Shown here piece after piece: positions 45,812 through 47,727 of a stretch of 64,000 nucleotides of DNA. Both the position numbers and the translations under genes were made by a program. Under the pieces are notes generated by a model. The model saw only the letters and a list, made by a program, of their open reading frames with translations. It had not been told where the DNA came from and ran no database searches. The stretch is taken from NCBI GenBank assembly GCA_029261035.1, contig JAJDCD010000023.1:301126-365125 (forward strand), in the 5' to 3' direction. Within the stretch, counting starts at the first letter, position 1, and each line of letters starts with the position of its first letter. This DNA is from Candidatus Omnitrophota bacterium (GTDB lineage: Bacteria; Omnitrophota; Omnitrophia; Omnitrophales; JACROU01).

Positions 45812-46906
45812 CTATTTTATTAATTGTGTATCGAGTTTTTCTGATACTTCTTCTATGCTTGTTGGGCGGATGCCGAATGTTTTTTGCCATACTTCTTGAG
45901 ATTCCATGCAAAGAAAAAGAGCTAAGTCCTTTGAATAAGAGCGGATATGAGATTGGATGGCCTGAAACATCTCTGTACGAATGTCTTTAAAGTAACGCAT
46001 TTTGTCATCCACACCCCGAACGAACTCCCCATAGGCGAGTTTGGATTTAGGAAATCTTTCTGTCATTACATTTTTTAACTTAGGAAGATAGCGCAAAGAC
46101 CCCATGCTGATCCATGTAATTTTTTCGGGTGGAATAGCGTCGAAGAGACGGTCGAGAGACTCTTTGTAATCTTTTTCCCAGCCTTCATAGTGAACGATAG
46201 GGTCTAAATGAAAAGTTACTTTATAGCCAGCATCTAAAACTTTTTTGGCTGCAATCAGTCTTTTTTCTAGAGAAGCTGTTTTGTGTTCTTCTTCTTGGCT
46301 AATTTTTTCTGAATTGTAAGACCATCCAACAATCACTTTTTCTTTTGGAGCCATTTTGAGTAAGTTATCGATGTTGTCGGACTTGGTTTTGAATTCTAAA
46401 GTGGCGTTGGAAATGTTTTGAAAAAAAGGAACAAGTATTTCTGAGAAACCCGTGAGATGATCGGTCGAGAGAGAGTCTGTTAATTCTCCTGTCCCAATAC
46501 GGTAATAACTTTTCGGATTTTCTTTTAAGATAGAACTCAACTCGCTAAGAGCATCTTCGATGTTCGTGTAAAAGGTTAAGATGGGGTTGTTTAGATAAGC
46601 TTGCAAAATACAATAGCTGCAATCAAAATTACAACCAACAGCTAAATGAAATATTTGATAGTTGCAACAAACATAGTCGGTTACAGAAGGACAAGGCTTG
46701 AAGAACTTTCCTTTGTGGCGTGTGAGCAACACCATACGCTTGCCTTGAGTAAAGGCGTCTTCTTTGTCGTTGTAATGCCGGATGATGGCTTTTTCATCTT
46801 GAATGATTTCAACAGGGATTCCAGGCATACGTTCTAGCATGCGCCCCGTTTGAGTATCGTTCTTGGCTTCTTCGGTTATAAATATTTTTGAAGGGGTGTA
46901 GTTCAT
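45812..46906 (-). CDS. Radical SAM protein, spore-photoproduct-lyase (SplB)/COG1533 DNA-repair-photolyase-like
   Basis: GCNFDCSYCILQAY (CxxxCxxC) is preceded by an SplB-like N-terminal segment. Its start overlaps the stop of the GT2 gene (ATGA). Confidence 0.65.
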   Translation of the reverse strand: MNYTPSKIFITEEAKNDTQTGRMLERMPGIPVEIIQDEKAIIRHYNDKEDAFTQGKRMVLLTRHKGKFFKPCPSVTDYVCCNYQIFHLAVGCNFDCSYCILQAYLNNPILTFYTNIEDALSELSSILKENPKSYYRIGTGELTDSLSTDHLTGFSEILVPFFQNISNATLEFKTKSDNIDNLLKMAPKEKVIVGWSYNSEKISQEEEHKTASLEKRLIAAKKVLDAGYKVTFHLDPIVHYEGWEKDYKESLDRLFDAIPPEKITWISMGSLRYLPKLKNVMTERFPKSKLAYGEFVRGVDDKMRYFKDIRTEMFQAIQSHIRSYSKDLALFLCMESQEVWQKTFGIRPTSIEEVSEKLDTQLIK

Positions 46907-47727
46907 GTTGTTTCGTACTTCTGAATTAGATCCAGATAATATTGTCCTTTTTCATTTTTTCCATGTTTGATACATCCGTTACCAAACACAGTACATTTTT
47001 CTCTCAGGGTTTCTGTTGTCCATTTGCGCTGTTCTTCCGTAAGGACTTGAGAGTCTAGTAATTGTATCATAGATTGAATTCGGTACTGATCCATCTGTGG
47101 TGTTGATTGAGATAGTTGGTCTGGACGCCCCCCGTATTTGGTAACTAAAGGACGGTCAATAAGATGGATAGGATAGCGATGAGTCGTTCGGAGCCAGAGG
47201 TCATAATCTTCGCAGGCAGGCATGCTTTCATCAAAAGCCCCTACGCGCTCTAAAATTTCTTTTTTGAGGGCGATTGCCGAAATGGTCACAATGCATAAGG
47301 GCAAACATTGCTTATATATAAATCCGGAGTGTTTTTTGTGTTTATCTTTAGGATTGACGCGCTTTCCTTTTCTGATCCAAGTTTCTCCTGTTTGGCAGGC
47401 AACAGCTTCTGGATTCTCTTTAAAAAAATTAACTTGGGCGTCTATTTTTTGAGGAAGCCATTCATCGTCTGAGTCTAAAAAGGTGATTATGTTTCCATGA
47501 GCTTTCTCAATGCCTTTGTTTCTTGCGGCGCTGACGCCTTTGTTTTCTTGATAAATATATTGAATGCGGCCATGGTAAGGAGCGAGAACTTTTTGAGTGT
47601 TGTCGGTTGAGCCGTCATCTACGACGATGATTTGGAGTTGTTTGTGGGTTTGGTTTAGGACGGATTTTAAGGCTCTTTCGATGAGGGTGGCTCTGTTGAA
47701 GGTTGGGATGATTACGGTGGTTAGCAT
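46903..47727 (-). CDS. Family 2 glycosyltransferase
   Basis: IIPTFNRATLIERALKSVLNQT...VVDDGSTDNT...FLDSDDEW are GT-A/GT2 signatures. Confidence 0.8.
   Translation of the reverse strand: MLTTVIIPTFNRATLIERALKSVLNQTHKQLQIIVVDDGSTDNTQKVLAPYHGRIQYIYQENKGVSAARNKGIEKAHGNIITFLDSDDEWLPQKIDAQVNFFKENPEAVACQTGETWIRKGKRVNPKDKHKKHSGFIYKQCLPLCIVTISAIALKKEILERVGAFDESMPACEDYDLWLRTTHRYPIHLIDRPLVTKYGGRPDQLSQSTPQMDQYRIQSMIQLLDSQVLTEEQRKWTTETLREKCTVFGNGCIKHGKNEKGQYYLDLIQKYETT

Follow-up and report, generated by a model that had tools for sequence, protein, structure and literature searches.

Two overlapping minus-strand genes in the 64-kb stretch of DNA analysed here (64,000 nt of contig JAJDCD010000023.1, referred to throughout as the window) encode a GT2 glycosyltransferase and a radical S-adenosylmethionine (SAM) enzyme with the fold of spore photoproduct lyase (SPL), and they are best explained as a single transcription and translation unit for two consecutive enzymes of one pathway. 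Judging from gene order in related genomes, the two genes represent, in a ParB-independent form, a larger module of three genes composed of the GT2 enzyme, a ParB-like protein and the SPL-fold radical SAM protein (rSAM). We suggest, tentatively, that the module is a conserved nucleic-acid modification pathway which would act most likely on DNA and combine an oxygen-independent base modification with glycosylation. No GT2/ParB-like/SPL-like association was described in the literature we searched (SPL with glycosyltransferase, SPL with ParB, COG1533, and SplB with Omnitrophica), nor were rSAM or glycosyltransferase (GT) partners mentioned in a survey of the ParB-CTPase fold, and the rSAM family appears to be a large, previously undescribed cellular branch of the SPL fold that is tied to a glycosyltransferase and a dedicated ParB-like protein.

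The GT2 gene (46903..47727, minus strand) is the first of the operon and specifies a soluble protein of 274 amino acids (aa), and the rSAM gene (45812..46906, minus strand) is the second and specifies 364 aa; both were assigned from their open reading frames (ORFs) and Pfam matches. They share a 4-nt ATGA (46903..46906, minus strand) in which the rSAM ATG lies over the GT2 TGA (the minus strand reads ...gaa aca aca TGA / ATG aac tac), indicating that the two are translationally coupled as far as can be judged from sequence. These ORFs and coordinates, the ATGA overlap and the CNFDCSYC cluster of the rSAM protein had been given in the original prediction, and we found them as described in the sequence and its translation. 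The best promoter-like site is a TTTACA-17-TATGAT (47734..47762, minus strand; 10/12 in a consensus scan and a pattern match only), the -10 element of which stops 7 nt 5' of the GT2 ATG, and no Shine-Dalgarno sequence was seen 5' of either the GT2 or the rSAM gene; the GT2–rSAM transcript may be leaderless. A palindromic repeat element with hairpins lies 3' of the rSAM stop (45547..45735, unstranded; identified from inverted repeats, RNA folding and dispersed copies), where folding is strong (-95.3 kcal/mol, z = -7.6), and this is likely to be a terminator or an RNA-stabilising structure. The promoter-like site and the downstream hairpins are together consistent with a two-gene transcription unit. 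Rfam and tRNA scans of the 64-kb window were empty.

In a scan of one genome per species we identified at least 345 relatives of the rSAM protein, and gene arrangements were counted for the best 80 of these 345 loci, with the rSAM ORF recovered in 79. GT2 lies immediately upstream of rSAM on the same strand in 16 of the 79, mostly with the identical -4 overlap, and a GT2–ParB-like–rSAM triad is present in seven; a further 40 have the ParB-like and rSAM genes only, and in 15 the rSAM gene has neither partner. One metagenome encodes a GT2–rSAM fusion as a single 626-aa GT2–SPL protein (P0026), and on a metagenomic contig of 2.17 Mb a GT2 ortholog lies 1 nt upstream of an rSAM gene whose product is 76% identical, the flanking genes being different ones. 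The GT2-only arrangement corresponds to one clade of the rSAM tree, which contains the window, its close relatives and metagenome-assembled genomes (MAGs) of Omnitrophota, and includes the fusion. Triads are spread over four separate clades (Binatia, Aerophobetes, a deltaproteobacterial MAG and Zixibacteria), and because of this spread the triad looks ancestral. Complete genomes with the module include OZ251505.1 and OZ252051.1, which are Binatia triads, and OZ253580.1 from Acidobacteriota. All three pairwise adjacencies were thus observed in addition to the triad and the fusion. Since adjacency and overlap recur, triads occur in distant clades and a fusion exists, the GT2–rSAM coupling is, on the comparative evidence, more than chance and not incidental. 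The original prediction had allowed for orthologs that are never adjacent in related genomes, and the conservation of the coupling in relatives (adjacent in 16, triad in seven and fusion in one) argues otherwise. We note that where rSAM genes have no partner they are surrounded by housekeeping genes (RibF, Lon-N, HldE and OsmC), which we set aside as an uninformative clue to function, and that apparent N-terminal rSAM fusions in two loci (L058 and L075) were rejected as spurious ORF extensions in GC-rich sequence.

The third partner is a ParB-like protein of ~330 aa that matches ParB_N, with the ParB/Noc models covering the N-domain and the helix-turn-helix (HTH) region. Besides a retained GxxR box it has a C-terminal motif of its own (RYPxL...PPxFEG) and a pI of ~9.1, and it belongs to a discrete family (150–400 bits versus <100 bits for canonical partition ParBs). 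Its gene is immediately upstream of rSAM in 47 of the 79 loci, and the offset between its stop codon and the start of rSAM is usually -4 to +40 nt. ParB-like genes of the module type are also found directly 3' of GT2 in four of the 80 best metagenome GT2 loci (L151, L163, L161 and L165), and in two of these (L151 2091-3907 and L163 5986-7805) the GT2 and ParB-like genes overlap by 4 nt with no adjacent rSAM. The ORF of >1,630 aa which follows GT2–ParB-like in L151 and L163 was considered as a further member of the module and rejected, as it is an unrelated C25 (gingipain-like), type-IX-secreted peptidase. The ParB-like partner was overlooked in the original prediction because it is absent from the window.

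The rSAM protein has the SPL fold in both profile and structural comparisons. It matches the Pfam SPL family (PF20903) over residues 5–297 with 122.8 bits, above the gathering threshold of 27 bits, and its scores against the SplB equivalog TIGR04070 (141.7 bits) and the lyase_spl_fam model TIGR03886 (80 bits) do not reach the respective cut-offs of 400 and 437.55; the score against radical SAM mobile pair protein B (TIGR04470) is 26.2 bits versus the 410 required. The AlphaFold2 (AF2) model (pLDDT 94.5) was matched by Foldseek to SPL 4fhf over ~350 columns at 22–23% identity (TMq 0.82 / TMt 0.88, E ~5e-27), with the runner-up radical SAM folds reaching a TM of only ~0.4, and it has the full SPL architecture, with an alpha/beta domain at the N terminus, a partial TIM barrel and a C-terminal beta-hairpin. 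The CNFDCSYC cluster (46610..46633, minus strand) provides the CxxxCxxC [4Fe-4S]/SAM motif (C92, C96 and C99) and is invariant in 99 and in 83 sequences, and Y98 within it, the equivalent of SPL Tyr96, is also invariant. The predicted beta-hairpin, FVRGVDDKMRYF (45989..46024, minus strand; strands 295–297 and 303–305 from DSSP of the model, and conservation), has invariant D300, K302 and Y305 and a near-invariant R304. In the model, it takes the place of the base-flipping hairpin of SPL with Arg304/Tyr305, for which a role in turning the lesion out of DNA has been put forward (PMC3467042).

The active site nevertheless departs from that of SplB. The position of the donor cysteine, Cys140 in Geobacillus thermodenitrificans (Gt) and Cys141 in Bacillus subtilis (Bs), is Glu141 in rSAM and E or Q family-wide within a GTGE/Q motif, and the SPL Tyr98 position is Ile100, with Ile in 97 of 99 sequences. 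Because it falls below the equivalog cut-off and lacks both Cys140 and Tyr98, the rSAM protein is not SplB. The SPL likeness put forward in the original prediction therefore holds for the whole fold and fails, as an analogy with spore photoproduct (SP) repair, at the level of function; likewise, the SPL-specific Cys and Tyr residues it had named for inspection are divided between the missing Cys140 and Tyr98 and the invariant equivalent of Tyr96. Additional conserved cysteines (C72, C80 and C81) are found upstream of the cluster in CPSVTDYVCC (46664..46693, minus strand; translation, profile alignment and conservation table). In a profile alignment to 4rh0, a C140A/S76C mutant, Cys72 is opposite SPL Ser76, and SPL position 76 is the site of the donor Cys in Clostridium SPLs; as 4rh0 carries S76C, the alignment would set Cys72 at the Clostridium-type H-donor position. 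Cys72 is present in 82% of 83 loci and in 100% of those outside the core Omnitrophota clade, and Cys72, Cys80, Cys81 and Cys333 are each conserved in 72–100% of the 83. Core Omnitrophota GT2-only forms have Phe in place of Cys72 and Ser in place of Cys80, and the window subclade retains the ancestral Cys72/Cys80 state. The four cysteines may serve as a donor relay or, alternatively, as an auxiliary Fe-S or other second metal site.

SplB repairs 5-thyminyl-5,6-dihydrothymine and is found in endospore formers. The rSAM protein resembles SplB (4FHC/4FHF, G. thermodenitrificans) in the CxxxCxxC motif, the invariant Tyr96 equivalent, the Arg/Tyr hairpin and a C72 that aligns with the Clostridium-type position, but differs in having Glu/Gln for Cys140, Ile for Tyr98 and the extra conserved C80, C81 and C333. 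Moreover, the rSAM family belongs to non-spore-forming phyla and is coupled to GT2 and/or the ParB-like protein, whereas SplB is not.

The GT2 protein matches Pfam PF00535 (Glycos_transf_2) with 136.6 bits and its AF2 model (pLDDT 95.1) is that of a classical SpsA-like GT-A enzyme. The best Protein Data Bank (PDB) matches found by Foldseek are SpsA 1H7Q, CgT 5HEA, K4CP 2Z87 and TarP 6H4F (E ~1e-17 and TMq 0.61–0.72, with E 8e-18 for SpsA). Orthologs are ~50–68% identical across phyla. The GT-A DxD metal/NDP-sugar motif is DSDD (47464..47475, minus strand), in which D85, D87 and D88 are invariant columns, and the catalytic-base motif is CEDYD (47200..47214, minus strand), in which C172, E173, D174, Y175 and D176 are all invariant, as is R12. 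With the soluble GT2 enzymes of the SpsA type (SpsA, CgT, K4CP and TarP) it shares the GT-A fold, the DxD and the ED catalytic motif. Features that set the orthogroup apart from them are a distinct helical region at the C terminus (with K197-x-GG-x-x-x-Q-x-S), a basic loop that is conserved (RVNPKxKHKK, residues 119–132), five conserved cysteines and the rSAM/ParB-like linkage. The cysteines (111, 145, 172, 245 and 252) are conserved in 90–100% of 90 orthologs and the orthogroup is basic, with a median pI of 8.75. Five conserved cysteines and a strongly basic loop are unusual for a soluble GT2, and they may be signs of a redox or metal site and of an acceptor that is anionic. The closest relatives with solved structures have polysaccharides and teichoic acids as substrates, and the acceptor is thus not readable from homology. 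A solitary GT2 ortholog was also seen in Desulfobacteraceae (L085/L086 6943-11820), convergent with a radical SAM gene outside the SPL Pfam family and a methyltransferase gene, with TrmO and a RecD2 helicase nearby.

Both proteins have their nearest named relatives in Omnitrophota MAGs, with which shared gene order agrees, and these include an rSAM of 72% identity (L005, JACROU010000033.1). Carriers of the rSAM family are found in Omnitrophota, Desulfobacterota, Acidobacteriota, Binatia, SAR324 and others, and the module is spread over many mostly anaerobic, uncultivated phyla. There are no Chlamydiota among the best 80 species-level rSAM loci. The Chlamydiota setting assumed in the original prediction finds no support, and the organism probably belongs outside that phylum. 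An anti-phage defence function or phage origin was also considered and rejected: the PADLOC defence models gave no match for rSAM or GT2, no relatives were found in 2.9 M viral contigs, and a PHROGs search returned weak generic matches only. The best viral structural match of rSAM has a TM of only 0.60.

The neighbouring genes were correctly recognised in the original prediction, as Pfam matches confirm. On one side is a 1560-aa ORF (40997-45679, minus strand), the only recognisable domain of which is an RNase_T/DEDD exonuclease at residues 844–1033, and on the other are a PIF1-like SF1B helicase (48155-49387, plus strand) and a complete RecQ with RQC and HRDC domains (49391-51214, plus strand). 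We note that the annotated start of the 1560-aa ORF is inside a repeat element and that the true start is probably further downstream. Beyond these genes, the order on the Band7–PabB–PabC–PurH–FolC–MnmE side of the window matches that of L002, and the order on the FTCD_C–FolD–PanB...HemA–HemC–HemD side matches that of L001 and ~12 Omnitrophota-type loci. L002, which has the 76%-identical rSAM, and the ~12 Omnitrophota-type loci share the outer neighbours without the exonuclease and helicase genes. Because outer synteny is kept without the exonuclease, Pif1 and RecQ genes, these are lineage-specific insertions; the exonuclease and helicases fall outside the module, as do the repeats. The suggestion of a DNA-repair module or island that takes in the exonuclease and the helicases was accordingly abandoned, as relatives keep the pair and the outer neighbours without them and synteny with L002 and the L001-type loci shows the added genes to be insertions. 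The pair is situated between two folate/one-carbon gene runs (window 33466-40603 and 51324-53766), and the divergent FTCD_C–FolD–PanB arrangement is kept across loci with rSAMs that are only ~50% identical. Elsewhere in the window are a 1948-aa ORF (11304-17150, plus strand) with no Pfam match at E <= 1e-5, and a 370-aa protein (17161-18273, minus strand) with a PriCT_1 primase C-terminal domain which is possibly a mobile-element or phage remnant.

Repeats on either side of the pair had been described as brackets, and they are real: 45547-45628 and 47776-47871 are inverted repeats, and 45648-45695 / 47899-47946 form a direct one. The second palindromic element lies in the divergent GT2/Pif1-like intergenic region (47776..48001, unstranded) and belongs to the same dispersed family, which occurs between genes at no fewer than seven sites in the window (18345, 34880, 40631, 45553, 47780, 54450 and 59071). 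They are therefore not specific to the operon, and this distribution over at least seven intergenic sites also led us to reject the repeats as the bounds of a mobile element carrying the pair. Copies flank the exonuclease ORF (40631 / 45553) and the Pif1–RecQ pair (47780 / 51266), which are both of the synteny breakpoints with respect to related genomes. Companion modules are located at 35021, 40756 and 47927 and at 24554, 26415, 51266 and 59238, and the family is composite and REP/MITE-like.

Several systems in which DNA bases are modified offer parallels. An SPL-like rSAM of Pseudomonas phage M6, gp53, catalyses the isomerisation of a thymidine hypermodification in DNA, which passes through a thymidyl radical (PMC8989533). 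It resembles the window protein in being an SPL-like rSAM amid adjacent tailoring enzymes and serves DNA modification and not repair, but it is phage-encoded, ~13% identical to SPL, and its partners are a kinase, an amino-acid:DNA transferase and a PLP enzyme. Phage thymine dioxygenases (5mYOX) are divided into ParB-dependent and ParB-independent subclasses, of which the independent ones are often beside GTs (PMC13229309), and GT-A-fold enzymes bearing R...DDD...EDY motifs attach sugars to hydroxymethylpyrimidines in DNA, with TarP as the top PDB match (bioRxiv 10.1101/2023.12.21.572611); TarP is also amongst the matches of the window GT2. The module has in common with the phage 5mYOX plus GT systems, and with base J synthesis (JBP plus JGT), a ParB-like partner, an enzyme presumed here to act on the pyrimidine C5-methyl group, and a GT-A glycosyltransferase, and as in the 5mYOX systems there are both ParB-containing and ParB-free versions with the ParB-free one linked to a GT. 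In contrast, the oxidising enzyme in the 5mYOX and base J systems is an O2- and 2-oxoglutarate-dependent dioxygenase, where the window module has a radical SAM enzyme, and those systems are viral or eukaryotic whereas the module is chromosomal, core-like and bacterial; the GTs are likened by the generic GT-A fold only. Finally, SPL without the donor Cys releases a thymine allylic radical which is captured by external species to give C5-methyl adducts (PMC5368176).

On the basis of these parallels we propose the following pathway. The SPL-fold rSAM would bind DNA and its conserved hairpin would flip a pyrimidine into the active site, where reductive cleavage of SAM would generate a 5'-deoxyadenosyl radical and start SPL-type radical chemistry at a thymine-type base. 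As the enzyme has neither a donor Cys of the Bacillus type nor the Tyr98 relay, the base radical would be functionalised (e.g. as a 5-hydroxymethyl-type or other C5-methyl adduct) and not returned to thymine. The inverting GT-A enzyme would then move a sugar from an NDP-sugar onto the rSAM product, or might supply the attached group, and where the ParB-like protein is kept it could load or activate the enzyme on double-stranded DNA in the manner of the ParB-dependent phage thymine dioxygenases. The module would in this way be the oxygen-independent counterpart of phage ParB plus 5mYOX plus GT-A hypermodification and of base J synthesis, and an oxygen-independent route fits its distribution in anaerobe-rich phyla. 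A more far-reaching version, which we regard as speculative and rather unlikely, is that bacteria of many anaerobic phyla, the window organism among them, have a chromosomally encoded pathway which, independently of oxygen, converts a pyrimidine (probably thymine) of their own DNA to a glycosylated base, with rSAM replacing the JBP/TET-type dioxygenase, GT2 serving as a DNA glycosyltransferase and the ParB-like protein acting as loader or activator in most lineages, which would amount to an anaerobic bacterial analogue of base J.

A number of observations weigh against a DNA modification pathway. There is no ParB-like homolog in any frame of the window, and no nuclease or reader partner for the module was found; the core-genome, single-copy context amongst housekeeping genes is unlike that of known DNA hypermodification systems, and the viral-contig and PADLOC searches were empty. 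GT2 orthologs mostly stand alone with the genes often dispersed, and rSAM was found beside none of the 80 best metagenome GT2 loci, 45 of which had room for it. The solved structures nearest to GT2 (SpsA, CgT, WrtF, K4CP and TarP) are polysaccharide and teichoic-acid enzymes, and its R...DDD...EDY motifs (R12, D85/D87/D88 and E173-D174-Y175) are present but generic to GT2 enzymes. The pI of rSAM is near neutral (~6.5–6.8), and Cys72, kept by the window protein and most of the family, would favour a repair-like or isomerase-like outcome. This last point bears on DNA repair, in which rSAM would be a direct-reversal lyase for a non-UV lesion (e.g. a methylene-bridged or radical-induced intrastrand cross-link formed under anoxia) with Cys72 as the H-donor, the ParB-like protein aiding DNA scanning and GT2 accessory or unrelated. 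The full SPL fold and hairpin, Cys72 aligned with the Clostridium donor position in all members outside the core Omnitrophota clade together with the invariant Tyr96 equivalent, the single-copy housekeeping context in the core genome and the ParB-like coupling would all suit such an enzyme. However, repair gives no rationale for fusing or coupling the enzyme to a glycosyltransferase in several distant clades, GT2–ParB-like pairs occur without rSAM, Tyr98 and Cys140 are absent with scores under both SPL equivalog cut-offs, and the core Omnitrophota forms drop Cys72 and Cys80 yet retain GT2; in addition, the hosts are non-spore-formers from dark habitats in which SP itself is an unlikely lesion. 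We therefore consider repair doubtful, and of the alternatives in the original prediction, which had left a choice between repair and modification of nucleic acids or glycans, nucleic-acid modification is the better option and the glycan reading stands as a rival.

That rival places the substrate outside nucleic acids altogether, with the pair building or tailoring a glycoconjugate or small molecule (an NDP-sugar, envelope glycan or pterin/one-carbon metabolite), rSAM modifying the sugar or aglycone, and the ParB/Srx-fold protein acting as an NTP-dependent kinase or regulator. There are small-molecule kinases among the proteins of ParB/Srx fold, and the identity of the closest solved relatives of GT2, the frequently solitary GT2 orthologs in housekeeping contexts, the neutral pI of rSAM and the folate/one-carbon neighbours in the window and in Omnitrophota-type loci (PabB, PabC, PurH, FolC, MnmE, FTCD_C, FolD and PanB) all lend themselves to this view. 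Against it, rSAM retains the whole SPL architecture including the Arg/Tyr hairpin, DNA is the substrate of both SPL-fold enzymes that have been characterised, ParB/Noc models match the partner over the N-domain and HTH region, and the folate genes, which lie on the other strand, show no such association outside the Omnitrophota-type clade, so that we judge a non-DNA substrate to be rather improbable. Hypermodification of a tRNA or rRNA nucleoside by a radical SAM step followed by glycosylation, as for the glycosylated queuosine of eukaryotes, seems to us less probable still. There are many RNA-modifying rSAM enzymes, the queuosine of animal tRNA receives its sugar from an enzyme of the GT2 family, and the housekeeping-like distribution in core genomes and the basic loop of GT2 would fit, but the ParB-like partner points to DNA, no RNA or RNA-modification gene is consistently adjacent, and to our knowledge no SPL-fold enzyme acts on RNA. 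That GT2 and rSAM are functionally unrelated and adjacent by accident is very improbable and was already disfavoured; while most GT2 and most rSAM orthologs are not neighbours, the 16 adjacent loci mostly have a 4-nt overlap, the triad recurs in four distant clades, all pairwise adjacencies occur, and the fusion is in-frame.

A single phage enzyme had already demonstrated that the SPL fold can install DNA modifications. Should the module modify DNA, no earlier route to a glycosylated or hydroxymethyl-type base would have been oxygen-independent, and none would have been found on bacterial chromosomes as opposed to phages or trypanosomes; it would also extend the newly recognised role of ParB-fold proteins beside DNA-modifying enzymes. 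Even with another substrate, the three proteins are marked out by the fusion and the triads as a clean system open to reconstitution.

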